Shown here piece by piece: positions 24,297 through 52,580 of a stretch of DNA of 64,000 nt. The stretch comes from a bacterium. GTDB lineage: Bacteria > JACRDZ01 > JAQUKH01. Positions within the stretch are counted from its first letter, which is position 1. Each line of letters opens with the position of its first letter. Below the pieces are notes generated by a model that searched no databases, had not been told where the DNA came from, and saw only the letters and a program-made list of their open reading frames with translations. The stretch is from assembly GCA_028719205.1 (NCBI GenBank), contig JAQUKH010000002.1, forward strand, positions 96,828 to 160,827, read 5' to 3'. A program made the translations under genes and the position numbers.

Positions 24297-24325
24297 TAAA
24301 AATATAAGTACAAGGAGGCTTGGAT

Positions 24326-30182: not shown

Positions 30183-30986
30183 ATGAGTGATATTATTAAA
30201 GCAATTATTTTGGGAGTAGTCGAAGGTGTTACGGAATTTCTGCCTATTTCCTCAACTGGGCATCTGATCCTTGTAAACCAGTATATTTCTTTCAGCGAGC
30301 AGTTTACAAAGATGTTTGATATTGTGATACAACTTGGGGCAATTATATCCGTGGTGGTGTTTTTCAGAAGTAAGATCCTGCCGTTCAATAAAGATAACGC
30401 GACTGAAAAAAATCAGATATATGATATATGGAAAAAAACAATAATTGGAGTAATTCCGGCATTGTTTATCGGGGCGTTATTAAAAAAGCATATAGAGGAA
30501 TTATTATTTAATCCGTTAACTGTTTCTATCGCTCTTGTGATTGGCGGAATAGTGTTAATCTTTTTAGAAAACCTTAAAAAGGATCATAAAATCCAAACAA
30601 TCGCGGAATTAAGTTATAAAACAGCATTCATTATAGGCTTGATTCAGTGCCTTGCTATGATCCCGGGAACATCCAGGTCTGCCGCGACAATAATTGGCGC
30701 TATGATTTTAGGATGTTCACGTATTGTTGCTGTGGAATTTTCATTCTATTTAGCCATTCCTACAATTGCAGCGGCATCCGCTTATTCATTTTTAAAGGCT
30801 GGTATGATATTATCTTCGAGTGAACTTATGGCTTTAGCGATTGGTTTTATTGTTTCTTTTCTTGTAGCGTGGATAGTTATTGCAGGTTTTATGAATTTTA
30901 TAAGCAAAAGGGATTTTAAACTGTTTGGATATTACAGGATAATTCTTGGGGGAATTGTTTTGTTGATGTTTCTGCTGAAGAGATAA
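30183..30986 (+). CDS. uppP: Undecaprenyl-diphosphate phosphatase
   Basis: GVVEGVTEFLPISSTGHLIL and SRSAATIIGA motifs. 8 TM. Confidence 0.9.
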   Translation: MSDIIKAIILGVVEGVTEFLPISSTGHLILVNQYISFSEQFTKMFDIVIQLGAIISVVVFFRSKILPFNKDNATEKNQIYDIWKKTIIGVIPALFIGALLKKHIEELLFNPLTVSIALVIGGIVLIFLENLKKDHKIQTIAELSYKTAFIIGLIQCLAMIPGTSRSAATIIGAMILGCSRIVAVEFSFYLAIPTIAAASAYSFLKAGMILSSSELMALAIGFIVSFLVAWIVIAGFMNFISKRDFKLFGYYRIILGGIVLLMFLLKR

Positions 30987-31799: not shown

Positions 31800-33056
31800 T
31801 TATTTTTCAGTGCTATTAATTGATTCAAGAAAATCTTTATTAGTTTTTGTTTTTGCCATTTTTTCCAGCAATAATTCCATTATTTCCGTTTCACTTAACT
31901 GATGTAGAACGCGTAAAAGAAGCCATACACGGCTGAGCTCATCTTTGTCCATTAAAAGCTCTTCATGTCTCGTTCCTGAACGGCCTACATTAATGGCAGG
32001 GAATATTCGTTTTTCTATAAGGCCCCTGTCAAGATGCAGTTCCATGTTGCCGGTTCCTTTAAATTCTTCAAAAATTACATCGTCCATCCTGCTTCCTGTA
32101 TCAACTAAAGCAGTCGCGAGAATTGTTAAACTTCCGCCTTCTTCAATATTTCTGGCGGACCCGAAAAAGCGTTTCGGGCGCTGCAGGGCATTAGAATCAA
32201 TACCTCCCGATAGTACTTTGCCGCTTGAAGGAATAATAGAATTGTAAGCGCGTGCCAGACGGGTGATACTGTCTAACAAAATTACAACATCTTTTTGATG
32301 TTCCACAAGCCGTTTTGCCTTTTCTAAAACCATTTCCGCGACCTGGACGTGCCTTGTAGGCGGCTCGTCAAATGTGGAGCTGATTACCTCACCTTTAACT
32401 GAGCGCTGCATATCTGTTACTTCTTCGGGCCGTTCGTCAATTAAAAGAACAATTAAAGCTACTTCCGGATGGTTAGTAGTAATGCTGTTTGCTATAGCCT
32501 GAAGAAGCATGGTTTTACCGGTTCTTGGCGGGGCAACGATCAAACCTCTTTGTCCCTTTCCAATAGGGGTGATTATATCCATGACCCGCATCGATAAATT
32601 ACTTCTTGTTGTTTCGAGTTTTATCCTTTTTTGGGGGTAAAGCGGGGTTAAGTTGTCAAAAAGTATCTTGTTTTTCGCGATTTCAGGATTTTCAAAATTT
32701 ATTGCTTCAACATGCAAAAGAGCAAAATATCTTTCGCCTTCTTTTGGCGGACGAATTTGCCCTGAAACAGCATCACCTGTCCGCAAAGAAAATTTTCTGA
32801 TCTGTGACGGTGAAACATATATATCGTCAGGCCCGGGCAAATAATTGTATTTTTCAGAACGGAGAAAACCGTATCCATCCTGCAGTGTTTCCAAAACTCC
32901 CTGCCCGAATATAAGGCCGTTTTTTTCAGTTTGCCCCCTTAATATCTTGAAAATAAGTTCTTGTTTTCTTAAGTTACTAATGCCGTCTATCTTTAGATCC
33001 AGAGCGATCGTGGTCAGCTCAGAGATAGTTTTGCCTTGCAGCGCGCCTATATCCAT
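31800..33056 (-). CDS. rho: Transcription termination factor Rho
   Basis: Full-length Rho: N-terminal OB/CSD, Walker [17 protein letters not shown] and R loops. It has a ~240-bp leader (33057-33297). Confidence 0.95.
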
Positions 33057-33948: not shown

Positions 33949-34827
33949 CTAAATTTTATTAATAAGATTATTGAATTCCAGTTCCTTAAACAATTGTTCC
34001 AGTTTTTCCCGGTTAAATTCTTTTATCCTGCAATTATGTATATCAATATCGAACGGCACGTCGGTTTTTATTACGGCGAGGCGTTTGCTTAATATGGCGG
34101 TATCTTTATTTTTTATAATGGATCTTCTGTGCTTTTCGTTTTTTATTTCGTTAACATTCTCAATGAGGTTTTCTATGGTGTTAAAGCGGTTGATGAGGCT
34201 CAGCGCGCCTTTCTGGCCGATACCGTCAACACCGGGGATATTGTCGGAACTGTCGCCGCACAGCGCGAGGAAATCCGGAATATTTTCAGGGGGGACGCCC
34301 ATTTTTTCTATGACAGCGTTACGGTCATAATATATTTTTTCCCCGCGGTCATTCAGGACTTTTATTTTACCGTTTACCAATTGAAGAATATCTTTGTCGG
34401 AGGACACGATCGTGACTTCCAGGGACTCGTTTGTAACATGTTTTGCTATCGTCCCGATAAGGTCGTCTGCCTCAAACCCGGGCATTTCGAAAATAGGGAT
34501 ATTGAATCCGTTAACCACCTCTTTGATATAAGGCATCTGGCTTTTCAGGTCATCCGGCATGGGTTTGCGGTGGATCTTATAATCTGTAAATTCTTCCGCC
34601 CTCCATGTGGTTTTAGGATGGTCAAAGGCGCAGGCGATATAATCCGGTTTTTCTTCCTTTAGGATCTTTAAGAGCATATTTGTAAATCCATATACGGCGT
34701 TAGTCATTTGCCCCTTGGAATTTTTAAGGTCGCGGATCGCGTAGAATGCCCGGTAGATGTAGGAATGGGAGTCTATTAAATAAAACCTTCCTTTTATCTC
34801 AGAAAAAAGATCTATAGTATCTTTCAT
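33949..34827 (-). CDS. 5'-3' exonuclease (stand-alone Pol I N-terminal/FEN-like domain)
   Basis: LIDSHSYIYRAFYA, GFTNMLLK, ACAFD, GFEADDLIG, GDSSDNIPGVDGIGQK. Confidence 0.85.
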   Translation of the reverse strand: MKDTIDLFSEIKGRFYLIDSHSYIYRAFYAIRDLKNSKGQMTNAVYGFTNMLLKILKEEKPDYIACAFDHPKTTWRAEEFTDYKIHRKPMPDDLKSQMPYIKEVVNGFNIPIFEMPGFEADDLIGTIAKHVTNESLEVTIVSSDKDILQLVNGKIKVLNDRGEKIYYDRNAVIEKMGVPPENIPDFLALCGDSSDNIPGVDGIGQKGALSLINRFNTIENLIENVNEIKNEKHRRSIIKNKDTAILSKRLAVIKTDVPFDIDIHNCRIKEFNREKLEQLFKELEFNNLINKI

Positions 34828-35893
34828 ATTCGGCTCCGATTTTTTCTATTGAATATTTTTTTATCGCAATCTTCCGGGCGAGGGCGCCCATTTTTTTTGT
34901 TTTTTCGGGATGTTCCAGAAGTTCAATTGCTTTTTTAGCCATTCCCTTTATATCGCCGACAGGCAGAAGATAACCCGTTATACAATTTTTTATGACCTCC
35001 GGAAGGCCTCCCGCGTTTGAGGCGATGACAGGGACCTCGCATGCCATAGCTTCAAGCGCGGTCAGCCCGAAACTTTCATTCTCCGAGGGCAGGATGAAGA
35101 TATCCGATTTTGAGAAGATCTCAGTTATATTTTTCTGGTTGCCTAAAAATGTAATATGGCGCGTCAGCTTTAACTTACGCGCAAGCTCGATACATTTATT
35201 TTTTTCAGGGCCGTCACCGGCCATTAAGAGATGGGCATTCGTTTTCTGCCGGACAATATTAAAAATTTTTATTACGTCTAACGTTCTTTTTATAGGCCGG
35301 AAATTTGAAATATGCGTGATAACTTTCTTATGTTCTCTTTTTACTGATTTTCTCTTAAGATATTCAGGATTGATAAAGTTTGGAATTAATTTGATTTCGC
35401 AATCCGCGCAAAATTTTTCTTCGGTTATTCTCTTTAAATAACGGGAAACCGCTGTTACCCCGTCGCTTACTTCAAGGCCGAATTTAACCAGCGGGAAATA
35501 TCCCGGGTCAAGCCCGATCAGATGAATATCCGTTCCATGAAGCGTGGTAATGATTTTAGGTTTTCTTGATGAAATTAATTGCGCGAGATACGCGGAAATA
35601 GTGTGTGGGAGCGCGTAATGGACATGAAAAAGGTCGAGCTTATATTTTTCAGCCACTTCTTTCATTTCACTTGCTAAAGCAAAAGCGTATAGGGGGTAAG
35701 AAAATACGGGATAGGGTTTTGTTTTTACCGGATGGAAGTACACATTTTTCAATCCGCTTTTCAGCCTGAAAGGTTTTTGTGAGGAAATAAAATGGACCTC
35801 ATGCCCCTTCCGGGCCATATACATTCCCAATTCAGTCGCTATCGCGCCGCTTCCGCCATAAGTTGGAAAACATGCAATTCCGATTTTTAACAT
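34799..35893 (-). CDS. bshA: GT4 glycosyltransferase, BshA-like (N-acetylglucosaminyl-L-malate synthase)
   Basis: LKIGIACFPTYGGSGAIATELGMYMARKGHEVHFISS closely resembles the BshA N-terminus. GT4 EX7E region. Adjacent to a BshB-like gene. Confidence 0.7.
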   Translation of the reverse strand: MLKIGIACFPTYGGSGAIATELGMYMARKGHEVHFISSQKPFRLKSGLKNVYFHPVKTKPYPVFSYPLYAFALASEMKEVAEKYKLDLFHVHYALPHTISAYLAQLISSRKPKIITTLHGTDIHLIGLDPGYFPLVKFGLEVSDGVTAVSRYLKRITEEKFCADCEIKLIPNFINPEYLKRKSVKREHKKVITHISNFRPIKRTLDVIKIFNIVRQKTNAHLLMAGDGPEKNKCIELARKLKLTRHITFLGNQKNITEIFSKSDIFILPSENESFGLTALEAMACEVPVIASNAGGLPEVIKNCITGYLLPVGDIKGMAKKAIELLEHPEKTKKMGALARKIAIKKYSIEKIGAEYERYYRSFF

Positions 35894-36564
35894 AGGATTT
35901 TAAATGGATCTGAAATTTTTAAGGGAACTTTGGAAATAAACGGTTCTCCAAACCGGGTTTTGACAAGTGAACCGCAAAATTTAGCTTTGGTTTCCAGCCT
36001 TTCCAGAAAGTCTTTCCGCTCTTTCATCCCGAATTGTGAATGATATGCCTTTATAGCCTTCATTTTTATCGCGAATTCGTCTGAAATATCAACAATAAAA
36101 CTTGGAAATACAAATTCATGCAATTGATAAAAAAATACAGTTTTAATTTTATGCGAGGCAAGAGGTATCTTTAAATTTTTCAAACCGGCGTAGAAAGCGC
36201 CTTTTTCCCCCAAAATTGAAGCTGTGACATGATCGGGATGCTGGTCCTGCCAGTATGGTAAAAGCAAAAGGGTTGGCTTGTAAAACCGTATTTTTTCCGC
36301 GAGAATGATACGGTTCTCTTCATTGTCCGCAACTTTAGCGTCGCCCATATCCAGCGTTTCTCTCGCGCTTAATTTCAAAATAGCGGAGGCCTTGATAGAT
36401 TCTTTTTTCCTTTGTTCAGGTGTTCCGAAAGTTCCGTTTTCACCTCTGGTGAGGTCAATGACGCCTGTTTTATATCCTAATTTTTCCATTTTGGATAAAA
36501 AACCGCCCGCGCAAATCTCAACATCATCAGGATGTGCCCCAAACGCTAAAATATCAAGTTTCAT
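35887..36564 (-). CDS. bshB: PIG-L/LmbE-family deacetylase, BshB-like
   Basis: LDILAFGAHPDDVEICAGG ... HPDH motifs. Immediately upstream of, and overlapping, the bshA-like gene. Confidence 0.7.
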   Translation of the reverse strand: MKLDILAFGAHPDDVEICAGGFLSKMEKLGYKTGVIDLTRGENGTFGTPEQRKKESIKASAILKLSARETLDMGDAKVADNEENRIILAEKIRFYKPTLLLLPYWQDQHPDHVTASILGEKGAFYAGLKNLKIPLASHKIKTVFFYQLHEFVFPSFIVDISDEFAIKMKAIKAYHSQFGMKERKDFLERLETKAKFCGSLVKTRFGEPFISKVPLKISDPFKILC

Positions 36565-36732
36565 ATTTTACTCCATAATATTATTAAACCATTATAGTCA
36601 TTTTAATCAATAAAATCAAGAACGATTCAATAAAAATGATGTGACTAAATCCTTCCAATAGTTTATTGACTTTACCTGTTTTCTGTGATTAAATAAATTC
36701 TAAAGTAATTCTATTTTACAGGAGATTATGTT

Positions 36733-38481
36733 TTGAAAATGAGATTGGCAAAAACAGCCGGATTTTGTATGGGAGTTCGGCTTGCGTTAAATAAGGTGTT
36801 AGAAGTTATAAATGAGAAAAAGGGGACAGATGAACTTATTTTTACTTTTGGGCCCATTATTCATAATAATCAGGTAATAGAATTATTAAATTCCAGAGGG
36901 GTGGAGGTTATAAATGATATCTCCCAACTTGAAAAATATAAAGGCAAACCCATTACGGTTGTTATCCGGTCACACGGGATTTCCCCTCAGGTTCGTAAAC
37001 AAATCATTGAAACCGGAGCAAACATATGCGACGCGACCTGTCCGCGTGTTGCTAAGGTGCAGTCTATAATCAAGAAATATTATAATGATGGCTATGATAT
37101 TATAATAATAGGCGACAAGGGACATGCTGAAGTTATAGGGCTTTTAGGATTCGCGGAAAATAAAGGCTATGTAATAAGCTCAATCCATGATATAGAAAAT
37201 CTTCCTCCATTGACAAAGAAAATATGTGTTATAGGCCAAACTACGCAGGATGAAAAATTTTTTTCAGAAATAACGGAAAATCTAAAACGGAAGTTCAAAA
37301 ATGTGGAAATATTTGACACTATTTGCGATTCAACTTCCATGCGTCAGAGCGAACTCAAAGAATTAGCCGCGACCTCCGAGGTTGTTATTGTAGTAGGCGG
37401 AAAAAACAGCGCGAATACGGCGCGCCTGGCGTCTCTCGCCAGCGAGCAGGGGACACCTACATTCCATGTGGAAACTTCTCTTGAGATACAACCGGATATG
37501 ATACAGAATTTCAGTTCGATCAGTATAACCGCAGGCGCTTCTACTCCCAACTGGATATTTCTTGATGTAGCGGAAAAAGTATTGGAGGTTAAAAAGCATA
37601 ATCTATTCTTTTTTAATAGATTTTTATTGACTCTTGGGCAGAATATATTAAAAACAAATATATTTATTTCTTTAGGCGCGGCGAGTTTAACTTATGCCAG
37701 CTGTGTTATTCAGCAAATAGAACCCAGATTTATTTATTTCCTGCTTTCCTTTTTATATATATTTTCAATGTATATATTAAACCAATTTACCGAACAGGTG
37801 AGTGTTGGATTTAATTACCCCGGTAAAAAACATTTTTATGACCGGCACCGCGGTGTTTTGATAACGGCGGGTATTTTAAGCGGCATAGCTTCGCTTGTTG
37901 TTTCCTTAAATCTGGGAATAACAATTTTTTCCCTTTTATTTATAGCGGTTTTAATGGGAATAATATATCAGGTTAAGGTTATACCTGAAAACTGGGGGAA
38001 AATATTCAAATATCAAAGGCTGAAAGACATTCCGGCATCAAAAGATATTTTTCTTGCTTTAGGATGGGTTGTTGTAATTGTGCTTTTTCCTTTGCTGGGA
38101 AGCGGCAAAGCGTTTACATCCGGTACAATACTGCTTTTGGTTTATGTTTTTACAGTAGTATTTATTCACTCTTTGATATACGGGATAAGAGACCTGCAGG
38201 GAGATATAATGATAGGTAAAGAAACGCTGCCTATCTTATTAGGAGAGAGAAAATCAATAAAATTCATTAAAAAACTTTGTGTTTTTTTGATCGGACTATT
38301 TCTAATATTTTTGTTAAAAGGATGGATACCTTCTTATAGTTTTTCCATATTTCTAATGCCTGTGTATATTTTAATATATATAAATATCTATAAAAATTTC
38401 AATTTTAACCGAGATCTATTTGAGCTGATCATAGATGCTCCTTTTTTACTATCAGGCCTGTTTAGTTTCTTCAGGATCTAA
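36733..38481 (+). CDS. ispH: IspH (4-hydroxy-3-methylbut-2-enyl diphosphate reductase) fused to a C-terminal ~300-aa polytopic membrane domain resembling UbiA-superfamily prenyltransferases
   Basis: Residues 1-285 are a typical IspH/LytB: GFCMGV, three conserved Cys, HN, ASTPN. Residues ~290-582 have ~8 TM helices and a YGIRDLQGDIMIGKETLPILLG block matching the second Asp-rich motif of UbiA/ChlG-type enzymes (YxxxDxxxD...G..TLP...G). The first motif is degenerate (NQFTE). An ATG at 36739 is an alternative start. Confidence 0.75.
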   Translation: MKMRLAKTAGFCMGVRLALNKVLEVINEKKGTDELIFTFGPIIHNNQVIELLNSRGVEVINDISQLEKYKGKPITVVIRSHGISPQVRKQIIETGANICDATCPRVAKVQSIIKKYYNDGYDIIIIGDKGHAEVIGLLGFAENKGYVISSIHDIENLPPLTKKICVIGQTTQDEKFFSEITENLKRKFKNVEIFDTICDSTSMRQSELKELAATSEVVIVVGGKNSANTARLASLASEQGTPTFHVETSLEIQPDMIQNFSSISITAGASTPNWIFLDVAEKVLEVKKHNLFFFNRFLLTLGQNILKTNIFISLGAASLTYASCVIQQIEPRFIYFLLSFLYIFSMYILNQFTEQVSVGFNYPGKKHFYDRHRGVLITAGILSGIASLVVSLNLGITIFSLLFIAVLMGIIYQVKVIPENWGKIFKYQRLKDIPASKDIFLALGWVVVIVLFPLLGSGKAFTSGTILLLVYVFTVVFIHSLIYGIRDLQGDIMIGKETLPILLGERKSIKFIKKLCVFLIGLFLIFLLKGWIPSYSFSIFLMPVYILIYINIYKNFNFNRDLFELIIDAPFLLSGLFSFFRI

Positions 38482-38492
38482 AACGATCTCCT

Positions 38493-39917
38493 TTACAAAT
38501 AGATAAAGTAATGCCTTGCCATTAAAGATTGAAGTTCTGCCTGGTTTTTTGGAGAGAAAACTTCAAAAAGTTCATCTATAAATTCGAATCCGTATTTTGT
38601 CAAAAACTGTATGATATTCAATCTTCTTTCCTGTAAAACCTGTTGAGGGAATAAATAATTGAATATCTGTTTCAATTCAGGATTTTGTCTTAAAGGCTGC
38701 TGTATTTTTTTATCAAGCCGGTTTTGAAAATCCATTATGGAAAGACCTGACCGGGATAAAAGGCCTGATATGAAATCAGGAATTATTGTCGCCCCGTACC
38801 GAGGGTAAATTAAAGGCATAGAAATGTTATGATAGTAATATAATTCTTTCAGCTGGGCAAAATAAGCGGTTTCATTAGGCCCAGCGACATAAACAGATGT
38901 TTTCAAAAGCCAGTCCTGAAGAACAGGCCGTAAAGCCACATTCGGACTGAATAATTCGGGCCTTGCGTCTAAAAGGGAAGTGATTTGATCTCTTGAAAAT
39001 TTAGAACCGTCTGTCTGAAAATAAGGTTCAAAGAATTTCAGTTTTTTTCTTTGATCATTTTCTTCTAAAAAAATATGGGTATTATTCGGAAAAGCTGAAA
39101 GCGCGGGGGGGTAGCCTTTTTCTTTTAAAAGGTTTTCTGATTTTTGAATAAACTGACAAGGCTTAAGAGGATCTTCCAACTCCTTTTTAAATACAGGTTT
39201 TGAAAGTTTCTGGACCTCAGTCTGCCGGGGGTCGATGAGCACAAGGCCGCGGGAGGAAAATAATTGAGTAAGGCAGGACGCGAACCAATCTATAAGGTTA
39301 AGGTCTTGCCCCGATCTTATATTCCCGAAATTTAATATAACTTCGTTATTTTCTCCGGCTATATCATCCTTAAATTTCAGGATAAAATTGTAAATATCCT
39401 GATAATTGAGCGTAATTTTAGAAAAAGATGCTCCTGTTTTTTCTTTCGGAAAAGGGAAGATAAGATCTTTTAATTTGTTCTCTTTGTTTACGTAAAAAAA
39501 AGAGGAGATATTCGCTATGTTACTGTCTGACGATTCGATCCAGAATACAGGCACGTATTTTTTGCCTGTTTTTTTTGTAAGAGTATCGGCCAATATTATC
39601 GCGGTAATAGTTTTATAAATGGTATAGAGCGGGCCTGAAAAAAGGCCCGGCTGCTGCCCTGTAGCAATTACACATGTTTTGGGATCTTTTAATGAGAGGA
39701 TATTGCTTAATGTTTTCTCTGTGCAGTTAAAATTATTATTATATTTAAAAAGATGTTCAATAAGGTTATTATCGCGGGGGATATGGTTTTCAGGCACAGT
39801 TTCCAGAGAAGGATCGAAATTAAAGAAATCTTTCAGTTCTGGAAAATTGCGGATGTAGTCAATAAAAATCTTAGTCTTATAAATATTTTCAGGATCTATT
39901 AATTCGAATCTTTTCAT
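38493..39917 (-). CDS. bshC: Bacillithiol biosynthesis cysteine-adding enzyme BshC-like
   Basis: ATGQQPGLFSGPLYTIYKTITAIILA matches the BshC signature GQQxGLxxGPLYTxxK. Length ~475 aa. Confidence 0.65.
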   Translation of the reverse strand: MKRFELIDPENIYKTKIFIDYIRNFPELKDFFNFDPSLETVPENHIPRDNNLIEHLFKYNNNFNCTEKTLSNILSLKDPKTCVIATGQQPGLFSGPLYTIYKTITAIILADTLTKKTGKKYVPVFWIESSDSNIANISSFFYVNKENKLKDLIFPFPKEKTGASFSKITLNYQDIYNFILKFKDDIAGENNEVILNFGNIRSGQDLNLIDWFASCLTQLFSSRGLVLIDPRQTEVQKLSKPVFKKELEDPLKPCQFIQKSENLLKEKGYPPALSAFPNNTHIFLEENDQRKKLKFFEPYFQTDGSKFSRDQITSLLDARPELFSPNVALRPVLQDWLLKTSVYVAGPNETAYFAQLKELYYYHNISMPLIYPRYGATIIPDFISGLLSRSGLSIMDFQNRLDKKIQQPLRQNPELKQIFNYLFPQQVLQERRLNIIQFLTKYGFEFIDELFEVFSPKNQAELQSLMARHYFIYL

Positions 39918-40634
39918 TTATGCTATCTTAAAAAAAGAACCAATTCGAAGTTTCCATACTAAAAAAAGCGCCTCCCACATGATCTTTCGTGACATTTTGG
40001 ATGTTCCCGAATGCCGGTCCGCGAATATAATAGGAATTTCACCGATATGGTATCCAAGCTCTTGCGCGCGGAAATTCATTTCTATCTGAAAAGCATAACC
40101 GTCAGAAGTAATTCTATCCAGATTTATATTTTCCAATACTTCACGGCGGAAACATTTAAAACCGCCGGTACAATCATGTATCTTAAGCCCGGTAATTAAT
40201 CTTGTATAATTATTGGCTACAAGGCTAATGATAAGCCTTTTTATAGGCCAGTTGATAACACTGACCATGCCGTTAAGATACCGGGAGCCAATTACCAGAT
40301 CATAATTTTCAATCTGTTTTAAGAACTCCGGTATTTTTTCGGGGTTATGGGAGAAATCCGCGTCCATTTCTATTATATAATCAGGTTTTTGTTTTATTGC
40401 CCAATGGAATCCTTCTATATATGCCCGTCCAAGGCCTTGTTTTTTCGGACGATGAATAACGGACACCTGCGGATATTCTTTGGAGAGGCCATCGGCTATC
40501 TTTCCAGTCCCATCAGGAGAATTATCATCTACAATTAAAATGCCAATATTAAGATTAAAACCAAGAATTATTTTTATTAGAGGTGTTATATTGGTTGCTT
40601 CGTTATAAGTAGGAATAACAACGATTGCTGTCAT
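39918..40634 (-). CDS. GT2 polyprenyl-phosphate sugar synthase (Dpm1-like dolichyl/undecaprenyl-phosphate mannosyltransferase)
   Basis: VVIPTYNE, DDNSPDGT, EMDADFSH and GSRY motifs. Confidence 0.8.
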   Translation of the reverse strand: MTAIVVIPTYNEATNITPLIKIILGFNLNIGILIVDDNSPDGTGKIADGLSKEYPQVSVIHRPKKQGLGRAYIEGFHWAIKQKPDYIIEMDADFSHNPEKIPEFLKQIENYDLVIGSRYLNGMVSVINWPIKRLIISLVANNYTRLITGLKIHDCTGGFKCFRREVLENINLDRITSDGYAFQIEMNFRAQELGYHIGEIPIIFADRHSGTSKMSRKIMWEALFLVWKLRIGSFFKIA

Positions 40635-40789
40635 TTATCAGTTTTTTTACTTTTTATTGCCTGGATTATTTGTAATACAATAGCGATAAATAATGTTATT
40701 GTAGAAGCCACTAGAAACAACCAGTTAAAAATACCATTCCACGAGATTGGAACTCCTAAAAGAGAAATTGCAGTTTTTGTTAAATCCAT
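40631..40789 (-). CDS. Small hydrophobic protein (52 aa, 1-2 TM): MDLTKTAISLLGVPISWNGIFNWLFLVASTITLFIAIVLQIIQAIKSKKTDK
   Basis: Not in the ORF track. AGGAG 6 nt upstream. Its TGA stop overlaps the ATG of the Dpm1-like GT2 (ATGA), suggesting translational coupling. Confidence 0.45.
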   Translation of the reverse strand: MDLTKTAISLLGVPISWNGIFNWLFLVASTITLFIAIVLQIIQAIKSKKTDK

Positions 40790-40852
40790 TTTCGACTCCT
40801 AATTTCATTCCCTGAATTATATCCAACATTAAAATAAATGTCAATTATATTA

Positions 40853-42214
40853 CTACCATTTAGATTTTAGAAAATACAATACATCGTAAAGCAAATCGCC
40901 GTTTTTTAAACTGCGTAAAAAACGATGCCAAAAATAAGAAGGACGCAAATAGTATTCGCGGAAAGCTCTTTTGTAATAAAGGCTGATTGTCGGCCAATCC
41001 AAATTTTCGTGTTGAAAGATAGGTTTTTCAATTTGATGAACAATATAAGACGGCCAATCCTGGTGTAATATTTTCCCTTTAGCTAATAGCTCTTGATAAT
41101 AATCTGTTCCCGGATACGGAATACAAATATCAAATTTAGCGATAGAAAGAGGAAGGCTTTTGGAAAATTGGATTGTTTTTTCCATTGATTCCTCTGTTTC
41201 TCCCGAAAGTCCGAAAATAAAAAAGCCAAAAGTGTCGATACCGGCATTGTTGGCGGCGGTTACCGCCCGTTTAATTTGCTCCAGTGTTGTTTTTTTACTG
41301 ATTTTTTCCAAAACTTTTTGATCGCCTGTTTCAATTCCGAACCCTGTTTGCCACAACCCTGCTTTTTTTGCGATCCGGAAAAATTCCTCATCTACTAAAT
41401 TAACCCGGACTCCATTGATAAGAGACCATGGAAATTTAAGGCCACGCCGGACTATTTCATTGCAAATCGCTTTCGCCCGTTTAATATCCTGGGTAAAGCT
41501 GTCATCGGCGATATGGATTTCTTTAAAGCCGCATTTAAGCATATATTCCATTTCGTCAACTACTCTATTTGTTGATTTCATGCGATAATCGGTCCCAAAA
41601 GTTAATTTACTGCAGAAATTACAACTGTATGCGCAGCCACGGCTTGTTTCAATATGTCCTACAGGATTAGCACGTGAAGATATCCGGGAATTTTTGTATT
41701 TTGTTAAGTCAAATAATTGCCATGCGGGAAATGGCAGACTGTCAAGATCAACTATTAATGGGCGTGCCGGAATAACACGCGGTGCAGATGATAACGGGCT
41801 TTTAAGTAAATCCGGTAAAACTAAGTCACCTTCGCCCAGTATGATAATATCAAAACATCCGGCTGCGGCAGCTTCTTCAGGCATTGCCGTGATATGAACC
41901 CCTCCGGCAATTGTTTTAACGGCCGGATATTTTTTCTTAACATTAGCCATTAAATCCCGAGTAATATTGTAAACAGGAGTTTTAATTGAGGCTGCCACAA
42001 TATCAGGCTGGAAACTGTCAATTTCTTCTGACAAAGATTGCCATGGGTCATTTACAAAATCCAGATCAATAATCCGTACGCTGTGATCCTTAATCAAATG
42101 TCCGGCAAGTGTGGCCAACGTCAAATTAGGATAACTTGGGGCAGCTATACGGACATTGGTTTTTAAATAAGTGATATTACGTGAAGGGGCATTAAAAAAT
42201 AGGATTTTAAACAT
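40853..42214 (-). CDS. B12-binding radical SAM enzyme (class B)
   Basis: N-terminal cobalamin-binding Rossmann segment (IAGGVHITAMPEE), CAYSCNFC CxxxCxxC motif. Start set at Met24 (MFKILFF), 1 nt after the stop of the upstream GT2. Confidence 0.8.
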   Translation of the reverse strand: MFKILFFNAPSRNITYLKTNVRIAAPSYPNLTLATLAGHLIKDHSVRIIDLDFVNDPWQSLSEEIDSFQPDIVAASIKTPVYNITRDLMANVKKKYPAVKTIAGGVHITAMPEEAAAAGCFDIIILGEGDLVLPDLLKSPLSSAPRVIPARPLIVDLDSLPFPAWQLFDLTKYKNSRISSRANPVGHIETSRGCAYSCNFCSKLTFGTDYRMKSTNRVVDEMEYMLKCGFKEIHIADDSFTQDIKRAKAICNEIVRRGLKFPWSLINGVRVNLVDEEFFRIAKKAGLWQTGFGIETGDQKVLEKISKKTTLEQIKRAVTAANNAGIDTFGFFIFGLSGETEESMEKTIQFSKSLPLSIAKFDICIPYPGTDYYQELLAKGKILHQDWPSYIVHQIEKPIFQHENLDWPTISLYYKRAFREYYLRPSYFWHRFLRSLKNGDLLYDVLYFLKSKW

Positions 42215-42215
42215 A

Positions 42216-42956
42216 TTAATTTTTTCTAAAAATAGCTGACTTATAGAACGATTTTGCCAGGATAAATAAAAATAATGTCCCAAAAGTTCCGAAGGAATAC
42301 TTTAAACAATTTTTTAAACTGGCGCCGCGTTTTTTCCCGGAATAGCAGGTTTCTACCGGAACCTGAGCGATCTTTATGTGGTTATAAACAGCTTGAACTA
42401 TGATTTCAAAACTAAAAAGATAATCATTTGAATTTGCTTCAAAATTTGATTTTTCCAGCAGTTCTTTTGTATATACCCGAAATCCCTGATGAAGGTCGTC
42501 AATTTTAATACCGAGCACTACTTCATCAATTTTGTTTAATATCCTGATAGGCAGGATCTTCCACGGGTACATTCCGTTTTTTCCAGGATTATCTCCGTTT
42601 GAAAAGCGGCTACCCAGCACAAGCCCGGCTCCCTTTTCAACTTCTCTTATTGCCGCCGGTATACTGGAAGGTTTGTATTCACCGTCAGGATGGATATCAA
42701 CAATAATTTCGGCTCCTTTTCCGAGAGCGATCTTGACTGCTTCTTTTATATTGCCCCCGTACCCCAGATTGACGGGATTTTGGTATGATTCAATACCTAA
42801 TTTTTTGGATAATTCAAAAGTATTATCATGAGAAAAATCATCAACCAGTATGATATCATCCACAAAATGTTTAGGAAATTCAGTATAAAACTTTTCCAGG
42901 GTTTTAGAAGCGTTATATGCTATAAAAATAGCAATTATTTTTTTTTTCTTTTCCAT
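42216..42956 (-). CDS. GT2-family glycosyltransferase
   Basis: IFIAYNASKTL, LVDDFSHDNT and a DxD-like VDIHPDGE. Start chosen at MEKKKKIIAIF. Confidence 0.7.
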   Translation of the reverse strand: MEKKKKIIAIFIAYNASKTLEKFYTEFPKHFVDDIILVDDFSHDNTFELSKKLGIESYQNPVNLGYGGNIKEAVKIALGKGAEIIVDIHPDGEYKPSSIPAAIREVEKGAGLVLGSRFSNGDNPGKNGMYPWKILPIRILNKIDEVVLGIKIDDLHQGFRVYTKELLEKSNFEANSNDYLFSFEIIVQAVYNHIKIAQVPVETCYSGKKRGASLKNCLKYSFGTFGTLFLFILAKSFYKSAIFRKN

Positions 42957-43089
42957 AAGGGGGAAGTTTATCATATTTACTAAACTTATGCAAATGTTTT
43001 ATTTGTGGTGAAAATCCGGATTACTTGCTATAAATTCAGTAATTATTTTTTTTCTTCCATGGAAGCGGTATATCATATATAATTAGCTA

Positions 43090-44025
43090 ATGCGATGTTT
43101 TATTTGTAGCAGTGAAAATCCTGATTACCTGTTTTCTACGAAAGATTATATTACAGGAGATACATTTTCGATTTTTAAATGTTCTAAATGCGGGAATTCT
43201 TTTACGGACCCTAAGCCGGAGGATATTGAGAAGTATTATTCAAAAAACTATTATGGAAAGCGCAAATCTTTTGCCGAGAATTTAATTAATTATTCAAGGC
43301 TGCAAAAAATTAATAGTTTGTTTGGAAGTAATACCAGGCCATTACCGTTGATCTTGGATGTTGGTTGTGGAAACGGCAGTTTTTTATCTCTTTTATCAAA
43401 AAGGGGATGGCCGGTTTGTGGAACTGAAGTCGCGCCCGAAAATAATTTCGCGTGTGAAGAACTAAATTCAAAAGTATTTAATAAAGATTTAATCAAATGT
43501 GAGCTTGAGGACAAAAAATTTGATATAATTACAATGTGGCACACTTTCGAGCATTTTTCTGAACCCGTGGATTATTTATTAGAGGCGGGAAGGATTTTAA
43601 AAGATGAAGGTGTTTTAATAATTGAAGTACCTAATTTCAAATCCTGGCAGGCAAGGTTGACCCGCGGTAACTGGTTTCACCTGGACGCGCCGAGGCATTT
43701 GGCGCATTATAACCCGGAGGGCGTCAGTTTCCTTCTGAATTCAACAGGATTTGAGGCGTTTAAAATTTCTCATATTTCTTTTATATATAGTTTGTTTGGA
43801 TTTATTCAAAGCATTATTAATATTTTTACAAAAAGAAATAATTTATTGTTTGATTTAATAAATAAAAAGATCAAAATAACCCGTATTAATATTAAAGACA
43901 TAATTATTACCTCTTTTTTAATTATCCCTGTATCATGCGTAAGTATTTTTGCTGTATTTTTGGAATCAATTTATAAAAGAGGGGGAATTGTTATTATATA
44001 CGCGCGCAAAAAGGAGCAAAATTAA
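43090..44025 (+). CDS. Class I SAM-dependent methyltransferase with N-terminal Zn-ribbon
   Basis: CFICSS...CSKCGNSF ribbon. LDVGCGNGSF SAM motif I. Confidence 0.75.
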   Translation: MRCFICSSENPDYLFSTKDYITGDTFSIFKCSKCGNSFTDPKPEDIEKYYSKNYYGKRKSFAENLINYSRLQKINSLFGSNTRPLPLILDVGCGNGSFLSLLSKRGWPVCGTEVAPENNFACEELNSKVFNKDLIKCELEDKKFDIITMWHTFEHFSEPVDYLLEAGRILKDEGVLIIEVPNFKSWQARLTRGNWFHLDAPRHLAHYNPEGVSFLLNSTGFEAFKISHISFIYSLFGFIQSIINIFTKRNNLLFDLINKKIKITRINIKDIIITSFLIIPVSCVSIFAVFLESIYKRGGIVIIYARKKEQN

Positions 44026-45245
44026 TGAAATCGTTAACAAGAGAAGAAAAAATAAGTTATATAAGTACAATAATCTTAATCGGATTTATGTGTACTTATA
44101 TTTATGATTACTGGATGGGGGCATATTTGGGTAAAAGCTATCCTTTTAATACCTTTTTATTCAAACCTTGGGATAGATTTAATGATTTTTTTACTCCTAT
44201 GAACATAGTTCTACGGGGTAATGGTAATCCTTATAATTTTATATCACCTGATTCCATCAATTCTCCTTTATATCATCTTATGGCAATTGGTTTTATGTAT
44301 ATAAACCCATTTTTATCTTTTATAGTATGTATTTTCGCTTTCATCATATTTTTTGTTTATGTAATCAGCAAAAATTTAGTTTTGGCAACTAGAATGGAAA
44401 CTTTTAAAAATGCGATCATTTTTTCATTTTTTACCGCTATTTTCCTTTTTTCTTTAGAAAGGAGCAATTATGAAATAATAATTTTTGTTTTGATATATTT
44501 TTTCCTTGAATTTTACAGAAAAAAAAATCTTATTACATGCGTAATAATCTTATCAGTTGCAATTGCACTTAAGGCCGCACCAGGAGTTCTTATTTTACTT
44601 TTTTTGGATGCGAAGCAGTATAAAGAAGCATTACTGACATTAGTAATTACATTAGCTTTAAATCTCCTCAGTTACTCGGTATTTACGGGAGGATTATGGC
44701 ATAATTTTCAAAATAATTTAATAAGTATGAAGCTTTATAGTAAAGCCTATGCCATGTCTATGGGAGGGGGCGTAGGTACGAATTCCTTATGGGGGGCCGT
44801 AAAAATATTAAGAGAATATTTTTTCAACTATATAAATATAGAAACTCTGTATTATGTGCATTATATTATTGCGTTTACAATTTTTGTTTCAGTTTCAGCT
44901 TATATATTAAAGATCGAGAAAGTATTTTGGAAAAAATTGTCTTTGATGATAATTATGATGAGTCTTTTACCTCATCATTCAGGATATCCTAAATTAATGC
45001 ATCTTTATTTCCCTATGTTTTTATTTATTAACAGCGGGGAGAAAGATAAATATGATCTGATATATACAGTTTTATTCGCGTTAATATTAATACCAAAAGC
45101 TTACTATCACTTTCCCTTTTTGCCGGAATTAAATGAAAGCGCTATTTTACTTCCGCTGTTTATGGTTTTATTTATGGGTTTTATTATATATGACGGATTC
45201 AGAACGTATAAAATAAAAGAAAAAACAAAAACTTGCATTGCGTAA
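44025..45245 (+). CDS. Polytopic integral membrane protein, putative GT-C-type glycosyltransferase (DUF2029/GT87-like)
   Basis: ~11 TM helices. Located in the glycan cluster next to the polyprenyl-P-sugar synthase. No soluble domain. Confidence 0.35.
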   Translation: MKSLTREEKISYISTIILIGFMCTYIYDYWMGAYLGKSYPFNTFLFKPWDRFNDFFTPMNIVLRGNGNPYNFISPDSINSPLYHLMAIGFMYINPFLSFIVCIFAFIIFFVYVISKNLVLATRMETFKNAIIFSFFTAIFLFSLERSNYEIIIFVLIYFFLEFYRKKNLITCVIILSVAIALKAAPGVLILLFLDAKQYKEALLTLVITLALNLLSYSVFTGGLWHNFQNNLISMKLYSKAYAMSMGGGVGTNSLWGAVKILREYFFNYINIETLYYVHYIIAFTIFVSVSAYILKIEKVFWKKLSLMIIMMSLLPHHSGYPKLMHLYFPMFLFINSGEKDKYDLIYTVLFALILIPKAYYHFPFLPELNESAILLPLFMVLFMGFIIYDGFRTYKIKEKTKTCIA

Positions 45246-45311
45246 GATACAAAACAGGGATTTTAAAAATTAATGGTAAAATAATGATTAACAAAAATGG
45301 AGATAAATAAA

Positions 45312-46088
45312 ATGAAGGTTGTTATTCTTTGCGGAGGAAAAGGGACAAGAATGAAGGAAGAAACTGAGTTTCGTCCCAAGCCTTTGGTAAATATTGGCGG
45401 GTATCCGATTATTTGGCATATTATGAAGATATACGCGCATTATGGATTTAAAGATTTTGTTCTTTGTCTTGGGTATAAAGGAAATATGATCAAGGAATAT
45501 TTTTTGAATTATGAAGCAATGAATAATGATTTTACCGTTTGTCTGGGCGCAAAAAATAAAATAAAATTTCATAGCAAACACGAAGAACACAATTGGAATG
45601 TAACGTTAGTTGATACCGGTGAAGAAGCAATGACAGGTGCAAGAGTGAAAAAAGTCGAAAAATATATTGATACTGATCTGTTTATGGTAACTTATGGTGA
45701 TGGAGTAGCTGACATTGATATAAGAAAATTGGTTAATTTCCATAATTCACACGGAAAAATCGGGACGATCACCGGAGTTCATCCCTCTTCACGTTTTGGA
45801 GAATTAATTATCAAAGAAAATAAAGTCAGTAAATTTTATGAAAAACCTCAGGTGAGCCAGGGCCTTATAAATGGAGGTTTTTTTGTTTTCAAAAAAGAAA
45901 TTTTTAAATATATTAAAGAAGATGAAAGCTGTCTTTTAGAAAAAGAACCATTAGAAACACTTGCCAAAGAAAGCAACTTAATGGCTTATCTTCATCTTGG
46001 ATTCTGGCAGTGCGTTGATACTTATCGGGAATTAGAGGTATTAAATGATTTATGGAAAACGCCTCATCCTCCATGGAAGGTTTGGTAA
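45312..46088 (+). CDS. rfbF: Glucose-1-phosphate cytidylyltransferase
   Basis: MKVVILCGGKGTRMKEETEFRPKPLVNIGGYPIIWHIMKIY is the canonical RfbF/DdhA N-terminus. Confidence 0.85.
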   Translation: MKVVILCGGKGTRMKEETEFRPKPLVNIGGYPIIWHIMKIYAHYGFKDFVLCLGYKGNMIKEYFLNYEAMNNDFTVCLGAKNKIKFHSKHEEHNWNVTLVDTGEEAMTGARVKKVEKYIDTDLFMVTYGDGVADIDIRKLVNFHNSHGKIGTITGVHPSSRFGELIIKENKVSKFYEKPQVSQGLINGGFFVFKKEIFKYIKEDESCLLEKEPLETLAKESNLMAYLHLGFWQCVDTYRELEVLNDLWKTPHPPWKVW

Positions 46089-46093
46089 AAAAT

Positions 46094-47086
46094 ATGGGAA
46101 GCAGCTTTTGGTTGAAAAAAAAGGTTCTTATTACAGGTTATGAAGGTTTTTTAGGTTCTAATTTAACACAGAATTTATTAAATCAAGGCGCGAAAATATG
46201 GGGCTTGGATATTAAAACCCGCCGAAAAGAAACTATCCTGTCAAAAAAAGAATTAAATAAAATTAAAATAATAAAAGGCAGTGTTGAAAATTTATCGCTT
46301 GTTTCTAAAATTATTAAAGAAAATAAAATTGAAATAGTTTTTCATTTAGCCGCCAGCGCTCTTGTCGGGAATTGTTTAAAAAATCCAGTCGAGGCATTTT
46401 CCACTAATATAGAAGGAACGTGGAATATCCTTGAGTCCTGTAGAAATAACAAACATATTAAAGCTATTATTATTGCTTCCAGTGATAAGGCGTATGGGAG
46501 TCAAAAGAAATTACCTTACCTGGAAAATACCCCGTTAGCAGGAGAACATCCCTATGATGTTTCAAAAAGCTGCGCGGATCTGATTGCTTATGCCTATTAT
46601 CACACATATGATATGCCGGTTGCGGTAACGCGCTGCGGCAACATTTATGGGCCGGGAGATTTTAATTTTTCCAGAATAATCCCCGAAACCGTAAAATGCG
46701 CGCTTTCGGGCAACAAACTTATGATTAGAAGTGACGGGAAGTTTGTACGGGATTATGTTTATGTCGGAGATATTGTCAATGGTTATATAATGCTCGCGGA
46801 ACAATTAGAAAAGAAAGATTTAAGGGGAGAGGCATTTAATTTCAGCGATGAAAATCCCATAAACGTAATAGAATTAGTTAAAAATATCTATAAGCAAGTG
46901 GGCGCGAAAACGAATTATATAATTCTTAACAAAGCAAAATATGAGATAAAGAATCAATATTTGGCATCCGCGAAGGCAAGAAAAATCCTTGGTTGGAAGC
47001 CGGAATACACTTTGAAAGATGGGATCGAGAGAACTATTGATTGGCATAAAAATAATTATGGATATTCAAAAAAATGTCCCTTATGA
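46094..47086 (+). CDS. rfbG: CDP-glucose 4,6-dehydratase
   Basis: KKVLITGYEGFLGSNL, SSDKAYG, YDVSKSC (SDR Yx3K) and overall RfbG/DdhB length. Confidence 0.8.
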   Translation: MGSSFWLKKKVLITGYEGFLGSNLTQNLLNQGAKIWGLDIKTRRKETILSKKELNKIKIIKGSVENLSLVSKIIKENKIEIVFHLAASALVGNCLKNPVEAFSTNIEGTWNILESCRNNKHIKAIIIASSDKAYGSQKKLPYLENTPLAGEHPYDVSKSCADLIAYAYYHTYDMPVAVTRCGNIYGPGDFNFSRIIPETVKCALSGNKLMIRSDGKFVRDYVYVGDIVNGYIMLAEQLEKKDLRGEAFNFSDENPINVIELVKNIYKQVGAKTNYIILNKAKYEIKNQYLASAKARKILGWKPEYTLKDGIERTIDWHKNNYGYSKKCPL

Positions 47087-48491: not shown

Positions 48492-48516
48492 AAAGATCTA
48501 AATAAATATTCCAAAA

Positions 48517-49449: not shown

Positions 49450-49451
49450 TT

Positions 49452-50318: not shown

Positions 50319-50409
50319 TTCCAGTCCTCCCTTTTATTTTTTTTGGCGTTTCATTTCCCGCCGCCTATTATTCAATTATACATCATTTTAACTTTTTAAA
50401 CCTAAATAT

Positions 50410-51459: not shown

Positions 51460-51484
51460 ATAATACCCCCCCCTCTATTACTTT

Positions 51485-52549: not shown

Positions 52550-52580
52550 AAGTAATGCCCTTTATAATTCTATAATTGTT

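Follow-up and report, generated by a model that had tools for sequence, protein, structure and literature searches.

The gene examined here occupies positions 36733-38481 of the 64-kb stretch of DNA that was analysed as a whole (the window), as a single open reading frame that begins with TTG, encodes 582 amino acids plus a stop codon and contains no internal stops. All features described below lie on the + strand. A Shine-Dalgarno-like AGGAG (36720-36724, from direct reading of the sequence) precedes the start by 8 nt, and the encoded N-terminus agrees with the family consensus MxVxLAxxAGFC. The protein joins an IspH (HMBPP reductase) domain (aa 1-285; 36733-37587) through a linker with an amphipathic interfacial helix (aa 286-309, helix at 293-307 by DSSP on the model; 37588-37659) to a nine-helix membrane domain of the UbiA superfamily (aa 310-582; 37660-38478). 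The uninterrupted fusion of IspH to a UbiA-type membrane domain that an earlier note had described from this DNA was therefore borne out. The AlphaFold2 model of the whole chain had a pLDDT of 95.1 and a pTM of 0.90.

Both profile and structural searches identified the N-terminal domain. LYTB (PF02401) matched aa 4-283 (E = 3.2e-89, 299 bits against a cutoff of 24.5, profile positions 2-266 of 267), and TIGR00216 ispH scored 275 bits against a cutoff of 187.85. Foldseek matched the IspH part to 3dnf, 3szu and 3ke8 (E 1e-17 to 1e-21, TM 0.83-0.85), and the rmsd of 2.0-2.2 Å to the E. coli IspH entries 3ke8 and 3szu indicated a three-lobed alpha/beta trefoil fold. Across 88 fusions, C12, C103, C198, H44, H81, H131, E133, T171, S226, N228 and S270 were 100% conserved; the His, Thr, Ser and Asn among them belong to the substrate-binding set. 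The invariant columns at Cys12 (codon 36766-36768), Cys103 (37039-37041) and Cys198 (37324-37326) are those that we take to be the [4Fe-4S] ligands, Cys12 being the first, with E133 presumably the catalytic Glu, after mapping to E. coli IspH C12/C96/C197/E126. Judged by its residues and fold, the segment 1-285 is a fully equipped HMBPP reductase, in agreement with the complete IspH previously read there, and no second ispH was found within the 64-kb window.

Stand-alone IspH/LytB proteins, such as those of E. coli and Aquifex aeolicus, share the trefoil fold, the three cysteine ligands and the full substrate-binding set but are soluble, whereas the IspH of the window is held at the membrane permanently. 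The IspH-RPS1 fusions of Clostridia and Fusobacteria (NF000907) likewise begin with an IspH of this type, but continue with four to six soluble S1 RNA-binding repeats instead of a membrane domain. NF000907 was the top NCBIfam match of the window protein, via its IspH part (model positions 1-281 of 671), but because the score of 312 bits falls under the cutoff of 624 the protein lies outside that family, and a Pfam scan found no S1 domain in it. The IspH activity of IspH-RPS1 does not depend on the domains fused to it (Rao, O'Dowd, Li, Wang and Oldfield, Chem Sci 2015, PMC4746011; hereafter Rao et al.).

An HMM scan of the C-terminal half, which the earlier note had proposed as a check, placed UbiA (PF01040) at aa 377-553 (E = 1.1e-14, 54.8-57.1 bits against a gathering cutoff of 34.2), the alignment covering only profile positions 70-232 of 250; all 31 family members sampled also matched PF01040. 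The model shows nine transmembrane helices, where about eight had been counted from the sequence, and one short interfacial helix, with cytoplasmic caps. Foldseek matched the membrane domain to 4tq3 (AfUbiA; E = 4.5e-5, TM 0.66) and 4od4 (ApUbiA; TM 0.73) and also to the DGGGPS entries 7bpu and 6m31, with target-normalised TM-scores to AfUbiA, ApUbiA and DGGGPS structures ranging from 0.53 to 0.73. No sequence similarity to solved UbiA proteins was detected by phmmer or hmmsearch (single sequence, E ≤ 10; family profile, E ≤ 1), so the link to those structures runs only via Pfam and fold. The best NCBIfam model for the membrane domain, PRK13591 'prenyltransferase', scored 32 bits, far under its cutoff of 238.

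Lysine and arginine residues numbered 13 in the predicted cytoplasmic loops versus 3 outside. The active site of UbiA enzymes sits at the cytoplasmic loops HL2-3, HL4-5 and HL6-7, and an N-in topology puts these conserved loops on the IspH side of the membrane. As the earlier note had envisaged, IspH is placed at the membrane, being part of a single chain with the nine-helix domain.

Nothing speaks positively for an assembly or sequencing artefact, whether by frameshift, by loss of a stop codon or by chimeric joining of adjacent ispH and ubiA genes, although the source of the window is a metagenome-assembled genome and a T-rich run lies close to the junction. We consider such an origin extremely improbable. 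A Logan assembly of run SRR22315506, made independently, was 100% identical over 7,259 bp and encoded the same protein. The DNA carries no stop or frameshift at the junction, which was modelled at a pLDDT of at least 93. A search for the same fusion in other genomes, also proposed earlier, found it at full length in 77 of 80 related loci from GTDB species representatives, the remaining three ending at contig ends; it was therefore present in 77/77 assessable loci, including those of the cultured Dethiosulfatarculus sandiegensis and Desulfocarbo indianensis. The position of the junction was constant, with the membrane domain beginning near residue 290 in 87 full-length cluster representatives, and the same architecture was seen in 120/120 of the top profile matches listed and in fusions already published (PMC4746011). 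The 77/77 loci, the identical independent assembly and the confident junction model effectively rule out a frameshift or misassembly at the junction, and the window protein is almost certainly a genuine member of the IspH-UbiA family.

The suggestion that the fusion was undescribed does not hold, because Rao et al. had reported 47 IspH-UbiA "Rosetta stone" fusions in 2015, with the UbiA part classed as CDD PT_UbiA_5 (PMC4746011). They raised the idea that the fusion localises IspH at the membrane beside a prenyltransferase, described two DXXXD repeats and only sulfate-reducing hosts, and could not express the full-length protein. A limited literature search found no later work on IspH-UbiA function. 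The window protein resembles the published fusions in having an N-terminal IspH and a roughly 290-aa, 9-TM UbiA-like C-terminus in about 580 aa, and is homologous to the sulfate-reducer proteins over its full length; it differs in its host, an unclassified 'bacterium' MAG that is no recognised sulfate reducer.

The family proved large, with 5,258 clusters at E ≤ 1e-100 in a profile search, and all 120 matches listed from among these clusters carried PF02401 together with PF01040. From the top 150 representatives of one search and 7 matches of another we assembled 157 family proteins, 87 of them full-length fusions. Apparent stand-alone members of the clade (33/157) were mostly fragments that begin mid-helix or with an IspH tail; only P0079, P0090, P0112 and P0151 were possible stand-alone genes. 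For genomic loci, a peptide pattern from the KDIPxSK region (derived from a 7-sequence subset) was searched in GTDB, which retrieved 208 species representatives, and 80 related loci were retained; the exact species named by Rao et al. are not among them. When the membrane domain alone was used in tblastn (E 1e-39 to 1e-59), all matched loci were fusions, with hosts in Desulfobacterales, Desulfarculales (the cultured Dethiosulfatarculus and Desulfocarbo), Desulfobaccales and Syntrophobacterales. Hosts beyond the sulfate reducers comprised anammox Planctomycetota, Nitrospinota, Zixibacteria, Edwardsbacteria and the unclassified MAG of the window. The closest relative, the uncharacterised metagenomic protein P0008, was 61% identical over its full length, and for other members identity reached no more than 44% at full length and some 40% within the membrane domain. 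By sequence comparison, the window protein is a divergent new member of the known IspH-UbiA family.

Divergences of the IspH and membrane domains were strongly correlated (r = 0.93), showing that the halves diverged together since an old fusion, and the membrane half changed faster (mean identity 38% vs 52% for IspH). The model predicts that the two halves pack as one rigid unit.

Within the membrane domain, the first Asp-rich motif (N350-QFT-E354-QVS-V358; 37780-37806) lies at the cytoplasmic end of TM2 and does not have the full NxxxDxxxD pattern. In the hhalign register against E. coli UbiA, N350 corresponds to N67, E354 to D71 and V358 to D75. Across the family alignment the Asn was present in 84% and D/E in 67%, with the third Asp in only 11%, which differs from the two DXXXD repeats reported by Rao et al. 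In AfUbiA, Mg is bound directly by N68, D72, D198 and D202 but not by the third motif-1 Asp, D76 (PMC4106721). The description of NQFTE (aa 350-354) as a degenerate first motif was thus correct in that the motif is incomplete, but the sole loss is an Asp that is no direct Mg ligand in AfUbiA.

The second Asp-rich motif and its cap (38182-38244; hhalign and family alignment) run from G484 through D487, D491 and the KET to LPILLG504, within the block YGIRDLQGDIMIGKETLPILLG (aa 483-504). This motif, identified already in the earlier note, is intact: D487 and D491 align to E. coli UbiA D191 and D195. It falls in HL6-7, the lowest-entropy segment of the domain, and its conservation was high (D491 100%, D/E487 85%, G495 99%, E/D497 99%, T498 93%). 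A family signature, K431-D-I-P-A-S-K437 (38023-38043; family alignment), occupies cytoplasmic loop HL4-5, with P434 at 94%, S436 at 96% and K/R437 at 100%. Tyr412 (37966-37968), at the end of TM4, was Tyr in 233/233 fusions and is the putative equivalent of the catalytic Y139 of AfUbiA, as judged from its position in the fold and not by aligning the structures residue by residue; no residue of the UbiA family is better conserved than Y139 (PMC4106721). A conserved acidic pair, E564-LII-D568 (38422-38436; family alignment), marks the cytoplasmic end of TM9 (E/D564 85% and D/E568 97% in 233 fusions) and may act near the active-site cavity. The window protein departs from the family consensus at R479H (R in 91% of the family), at D484G and in having E for D at the motif-1 ligand E354, and by hhalign a non-basic residue stands where canonical UbiA has its RP(L) diphosphate-loop arginine.

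Compared with the archaeal homologues AfUbiA (4TQ3/4TQ4), ApUbiA (4OD4/4OD5) and DGGGP synthase (7BPU, 6M31), the window protein thus shares the nine-helix fold, a cytoplasm-facing active site, and the N, D/E, D, D Mg positions with the catalytic Tyr. It lacks the third Asp of motif 1 and the Arg of the RP diphosphate loop, has a longer HL4-5 with the KDIPxSK signature and an extra TM9 acidic pair, and is fused to IspH.

Retention of the putative metal site varied across the family. The window protein keeps all the positions of the AfUbiA Mg ligands (N350, E354, D487, D491) together with Y412, that is N-E-Y-D-D, while the full N-[D/E]-Y-[D/E]-D set was kept by only 104/233 fusions (45%). Direct Mg ligands were replaced across whole clades, with N changed to Y or L, D to N (51 sequences) and D to S or H, though Tyr412 and Asp491 never varied. 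Mutations equivalent to those substitutions abolish function in AfUbiA and EcMenA (PMC4106721). Catalysis is therefore not assured family-wide, because several clades substitute direct Mg ligands. These substitutions would fit a pseudoenzyme, a UbiA-like half that no longer transfers prenyl groups and only anchors or scaffolds a housekeeping IspH at the membrane or regulates it by sensing lipids or prenyl phosphates, as would the loss of the third motif-1 Asp from 89% of members, the non-basic residue in place of the RP(L) arginine, the faster evolution of the membrane domain and the lack of any conserved partner gene. The conserved cytoplasmic loops would then be a docking surface for IspH, in keeping with the fixed contact between the domains on the cytoplasmic side that the high pTM implies. 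We regard a pseudoenzyme as possible but rather doubtful: nine helices are more than an anchor needs, and an anchor has no need of invariant buried polar residues at catalytic fold positions (Y412, D491, K/R437, E/D497, D/E568). In addition, neither the catalytic Tyr nor any of the four Mg-ligand positions is lost in the window protein itself, and Mg2+ can still be ligated by Asn or Glu substitutes.

We also assessed gene neighbourhoods for a functional partner. Bacillithiol genes flank the fusion in the window, as noted previously, with BshA (484 bits vs a cutoff of 273.7), BshB1 (220 vs 182.5) and BshC (366 vs 265.8) all above cutoff. However, bsh genes adjoined the fusion in 0/80 related loci, and a functional tie to them was rejected as lineage-specific. 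A link to the glycan genes was likewise unsupported, since the window GT2 (39918-40634) was related only generically (E = 3.5e-4) to the GT2 that lies downstream of the fusion in one lineage. No conserved operon partner pointing to an acceptor was found among the 80 loci, in which neighbours reflected clade-restricted synteny. Dus was upstream in 19/80, a soluble GT2 was downstream in 16/80 with HIT nearby, and a nitroreductase was at +1 in 5; upstream neighbours in Desulfobacterales were a ParB-like gene, an unannotated 173-aa gene (cluster c16) and DUF3842.

The fusion gene of the window does lie near polyprenyl-phosphate sugar genes, which would suit a UbiA-like half that is catalytic but performs something other than classical long-chain prenyl transfer, such as phosphoribosyl transfer to polyprenyl phosphate, as in mycobacterial DPPR synthase. 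This neighbourhood was not conserved in other lineages, and the DPPR synthase structure 8j8k was a much weaker Foldseek match (E = 0.099, TM 0.38) than AfUbiA or DGGGPS. Other forms of non-classical catalysis would be a UbiA-type terpene cyclase or synthase activity, or a C5-specific transferase fed DMAPP or HMBPP directly by the docked IspH. An apparently obligate, rigid and co-diverged fusion fits best with an IspH product as substrate, AfUbiA binds DMAPP in crystals (4tq4), and the remodelled metal site and extra TM9 acidic pair point in the same direction. Taken together, non-classical catalysis of any of these kinds appears unlikely. It is similarly improbable that the membrane half is a dedicated partner docked under the IspH active site, where it would attach DMAPP or HMBPP to a membrane acceptor. 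If that were true, the lost third motif-1 Asp and the new TM9 E/D pair would reflect an altered substrate, and an unrecognised prenylated lipid or cofactor would be common to sulfate reducers, anammox bacteria, Nitrospinota and related anaerobes.

Our proposed explanation is that the fusion would be the IspH that the organism actually uses, held at the membrane's inner face, and that its UbiA half would be a Mg2+-dependent transferase that binds a prenyl diphosphate, has a membrane acceptor and gains from IPP and DMAPP produced beside it. From the sequence, we judge the chances that this half is an active prenyltransferase to be evenly balanced. If active at all, it is more likely a transferase that uses prenyl diphosphates than the 'prenyl-accepting enzyme' named in the earlier note. 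UbiA enzymes normally use C10-C55 donors, which require additional synthases, and the gain from proximity to IspH is therefore not obvious. The invariance of Y412 and D491, the conservation of K/R437 in all and of E/D497 in nearly all members, the Arg at position 479 in most members and the ranking of HL6-7 as the most conserved segment speak for activity. The replacement of direct Mg ligands in whole clades, the window protein's own departures at R479H and D484G, the lack of sequence-level similarity to solved UbiA proteins, NCBIfam matches far under their cutoffs and the lack of a conserved neighbour that would point to an acceptor speak against it, as does the possibility that the conserved cytoplasmic loops are an IspH docking surface and not an active site. 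Rao et al. arrived at the same working model (PMC4746011).

As a discovery the window gene is minor, because its architecture was already published in 2015. What the analysis adds is that the family extends far beyond sulfate reducers, that its halves co-diverged and are modelled as packing into a single rigid unit, and that direct Mg2+ ligands are substituted in several clades in which Tyr412 and Asp491 stay constant. Annotation pipelines call the fusion simply 'IspH'. A UbiA-type membrane clade seemingly exists almost only fused to the last enzyme of the MEP pathway, in a family that thousands of genomes from environmentally important anaerobes encode, among them sulfate reducers, anammox bacteria and Nitrospinota.

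A single 582-codon open reading frame at 36733-38481 (+) encodes the IspH-UbiA fusion. It starts with TTG, 8 nt downstream of an AGGAG, and its predicted N-terminus (MKMRLAKTAGFC) agrees with the family consensus MxVxLAxxAGFC. LYTB/IspH (PF02401) matched residues 4-283 (Pfam E = 3.2e-89), TIGR00216, the NCBIfam IspH equivalog, scored 275 bits (cutoff 187.85), and UbiA (PF01040) matched residues 377-553 above its gathering cutoff (E = 1.1e-14; 54.8 vs. 34.2 bits). The PF01040 alignment spanned profile positions 70-232 of 250 only, such that the region of the first Asp-rich motif falls outside the match. The peptides quoted in the earlier note were located at residues 350-354 (NQFTE) and 483-504 (YGIRDLQGDIMIGKETLPILLG). 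Together, the reading frame, profile scores and located peptides confirm its observation of an N-terminal IspH joined to a UbiA-type C-terminal part.

A frameshift or assembly artefact is effectively excluded by an intact junction, an identical independent contig and recurrence. The DNA between the two halves contains neither a stop nor a change of frame, and a 7,259-bp contig in the Logan assembly of SRR22315506 matches the window at 100% identity and yields the same 582-aa protein. The peptide pattern [RKT]LKDIP[AG]SK alone retrieved relatives in 208 GTDB species representatives, from which 80 loci were kept; 77 of these encode a full-length fusion and the remaining three are interrupted by contig ends. 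When only the membrane half served as query, an exhaustive HMMER search gave 1,253 cluster representatives at E ≤ 1e-3 (105 at E ≤ 1e-30), the best 150 of which were combined with 7 hits of a separate search. An IspH part was present in 124 of these 157 proteins, and 87 were full-length fusions (~575–585 aa, membrane domain from about residue 290). A whole-fusion profile matched 5,258 protein clusters at E ≤ 1e-100, and among the best of these, the 120 listed, all carried both PF02401 and PF01040. Apparent stand-alone members were mostly fragments with their first residue mid-helix or in the IspH tail, and this UbiA clade thus seems to occur nearly always as an IspH fusion. Four proteins of ~290–320 aa (P0079, P0090, P0112 and P0151), in which an N-terminus of their own precedes TM1 and no IspH tail is seen, may be rare stand-alone versions. 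Simple ORF calling also gave three unusually long fusions, from two Desulfarculales MAGs/isolates and one ‘Pseudomonadota’ MAG (L054, 805 aa; L068, 735 aa; L077, 654 aa), whose extra length is either a true N-terminal extension or an artefact of calling an in-frame start too far upstream.

The window protein is therefore a genuine, divergent member of a known and very widespread family. The novelty implied in the earlier note does not hold, as the architecture was published for 47 sequences, ‘primarily in Desulfobacterales’ (Rao et al., Chem Sci 2015; PMC4746011). In that study, the UbiA part was classed as CDD PT_UbiA_5, of unknown function, a Desulfobacula toluolica protein was modelled with Phyre2, and attempts to express full-length IspH-UbiA from three species failed. 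Named Thermodesulfobacteriota hosts included Desulfobacterales, Desulfarculales (including the cultured Dethiosulfatarculus sandiegensis and Desulfocarbo indianensis), Syntrophobacterales and Desulfobaccales. Further named hosts included Nitrospinota, ‘Nitrospirae’ MAGs, candidate division B38, Ca. Edwardsbacteria, Zixibacteria and the anammox Planctomycetota Ca. Brocadia, Loosdrechtia and Wunengus, and in all named hosts the fusion is annotated as IspH only. Mean pairwise identity among fusions was 52% for the IspH half and 38% for the membrane half, and the divergences of the two halves were correlated (r = 0.93), which fits one old fusion thereafter inherited as a unit. The window Rho protein (31800-33056, −) had an exact counterpart (100% identity) in an NCBI ‘MAG: bacterium’, with only a handful of relatives at 96–97% and the next tier at ~78% (Nitrospinota, Acidobacteriota); judged by sequence, the host is an unclassified lineage without a close named relative. 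Among GTDB species representatives, no membrane domain exceeded 40% identity to that of the window protein, and its closest relatives were metagenomic (81%, a fragment, and 57%).

The fusion gene splits the bacillithiol genes, with bshB1 (35887-36564, −) and bshA (34799-35893, −) divergent on one side and bshC (38493-39917, −) convergent from the other, all above NCBIfam equivalog cutoffs. A B12-binding radical SAM gene (40853-42283; best matches BchE and HpnJ, far below cutoffs) lies between two PpgS/DPM1-like polyprenyl-phosphate GT2s (39918-40634 and 42216-42974); beyond them come a methyltransferase and a membrane GT-C with weak likeness to GT87 (44025-45245). The gene content of 39918-45245 suggests a cluster for polyprenyl-phosphate-sugar-dependent modification of a glycan or lipid. 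The glycan cluster extends through 45297-53702, where a sugar nucleotidyltransferase and two dehydratase/epimerases accompany a GT2 and NeuB, a member of the sialic/nonulosonic acid synthase family, along with two radical SAM proteins, one of which has a SPASM domain, and an FkbM-type methyltransferase. The tie to bacillithiol and glycan genes suggested in the earlier note is coincidental, since the window neighbourhood was conserved at none of the 80 loci, nor were bsh neighbours found at any of them. Recurrent neighbours are clade-specific: Dus upstream (19/80), a soluble 280-aa GT2 downstream with HIT close by (16/80), ParB-like/c16/DUF3842 upstream in Desulfobacterales and a nitroreductase at +1 (5/80). 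The arrangement Dus, IspH-UbiA, GT2 and HIT (opposite strand) is conserved in a Syntrophobacterales-like group (L025, L027, L028, L031, L034, L036, L045, L046, L048, L057 and other loci), where the GT2 directly follows the fusion in the same orientation and the two may share a transcript. The sole other isoprenoid-lipid gene noticed nearby was an undecaprenyl-diphosphatase UppP/BacA ~6 kb upstream (30183-30986, +; PF02673, E = 3e-82). Elsewhere in the window, 22237-25198 holds a compact polyamine cluster in which an Orn/Arg/DAP-type PLP decarboxylase lies between two paralogous spermidine/spermine synthases of 320 and 292 aa, the aminopropyltransferase being present in duplicate.

An AlphaFold2 model built on an 87-sequence alignment of full-length fusions had a mean pLDDT of 95.1 (every residue at least 70) and a pTM of 0.90, so high for a two-domain chain that the model implies a defined interdomain arrangement. 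The modelled IspH trefoil (residues 1-288) is followed by a short amphipathic helix (293-307) and nine transmembrane helices (TM1, 310-326; TM2, 333-353; TM3, 373-392; TM4, 396-411; TM5, 436-457; TM6, 463-486; TM7, 505-528; TM8, 534-555; TM9, 560-581), with cap helices in HL2-3 (355-371) and HL6-7 (488-503). In Foldseek searches, the N-terminal half matched PDB IspH structures (E = 1e-17 to 1e-21, TM 0.83–0.85), at an rmsd of ~2 Å to the E. coli IspH:HMBPP complex. The C-terminal half matched AfUbiA (4TQ3; E = 4.5e-5, TM 0.66), ApUbiA (4OD4; TM 0.73) and DGGGP synthase (7BPU/6M31), whereas UBIAD1 and the mycobacterial PRTase 8J8K were far weaker matches. At the sequence level, the membrane domain had no match to solved structures at E ≤ 10 as a single sequence or E ≤ 1 as a family profile. 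Predicted cytoplasmic loops contain 13 Lys+Arg against 3 in predicted outside loops, consistent with an N-in topology that places IspH together with the UbiA active-site loops on the cytoplasmic face.

All of C12, C103, C198, H44, H81, H131, E133, T171, S226, N228 and S270 were 100% conserved in 88 full-length fusions, so the IspH half is constrained as a functional enzyme would be. The product is a genuine single-chain IspH and UbiA-fold membrane protein whose IspH active site is intact and whose two halves both face the cytoplasm, and the structural interpretation in the earlier note (a complete IspH and a UbiA-like membrane domain, here with nine helices) was largely right. No second ispH or UbiA homologue was found within the 64-kb window, and we infer that the fusion would be the cell’s working IspH, tethered to the membrane.

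For the UbiA half, alignment to E. coli UbiA with hhalign, of low probability and used as a register guide only, paired N350 with N67, E354 with D71, V358 with D75, D487 with D191 and D491 with D195. Across 233 full-length fusions with position-based weighting, Y412 and D491 were invariant, followed by K/R437 (100%), G495 and E/D497 (99%), W445, P453 and D/E568 (97%), S436 (96%), T498 (93%), R479 (91%), D/E487 (85%), N350 (84%), D484 (80%) and D/E354 (67%), while the third motif-1 Asp, position 358, was kept in only 11%. AfUbiA binds Mg2+ through N68, D72, D198 and D202, its R22 and K146 touch the diphosphate, and its Y139 is the superfamily’s most conserved residue (PMC4106721). By register and, for Y412, by position in the fold, the window protein has N-E-Y-D-D at the four ligand positions and the catalytic Tyr. 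The first motif, previously called degenerate, does lack its third Asp (V358), but given the AfUbiA ligands only this non-ligand Asp is missing and the ligand positions N350 and E354 are kept. We hold at about even confidence that the UbiA half would be an active Mg2+-dependent prenyl-diphosphate transferase. An acidic pair, E/D564-xxx-D/E568 (85% and 97%), at the cytoplasmic end of TM9 (38422-38436) lies outside the canonical UbiA motifs and might make up for the missing Asp.

The N-[D/E]-Y-[D/E]-D set was kept in only 104 of the 233 fusions, and coherent clades replace the Asn with Y or L, the first Asp with N (51 sequences) or the motif-2 Asp with S/H, such that the published description of IspH-UbiA as having two DXXXD repeats (PMC4746011) does not, on these alignments, hold family-wide. 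Equivalent ligand mutations eliminate binding or function in AfUbiA and EcMenA (PMC4106721). Beside these substitutions, a non-catalytic anchor or regulatory pseudoenzyme is a tentative reading that we rate below an active transferase, while altered chemistry, for example taking C5 diphosphates directly from IspH, seems unlikely. The window protein, with its ligand positions retained, has H in place of the consensus R479 and G in place of D484, and catalytic competence of its membrane half is plausible, not assured.

The membrane placement of IspH suggested in the earlier note had likewise been proposed, with the UbiA domain bringing IspH to the membrane and IPP/DMAPP being supplied to a UbiA-like prenyltransferase (PMC4746011). 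Among the papers searched, we found no later work on IspH-UbiA function.
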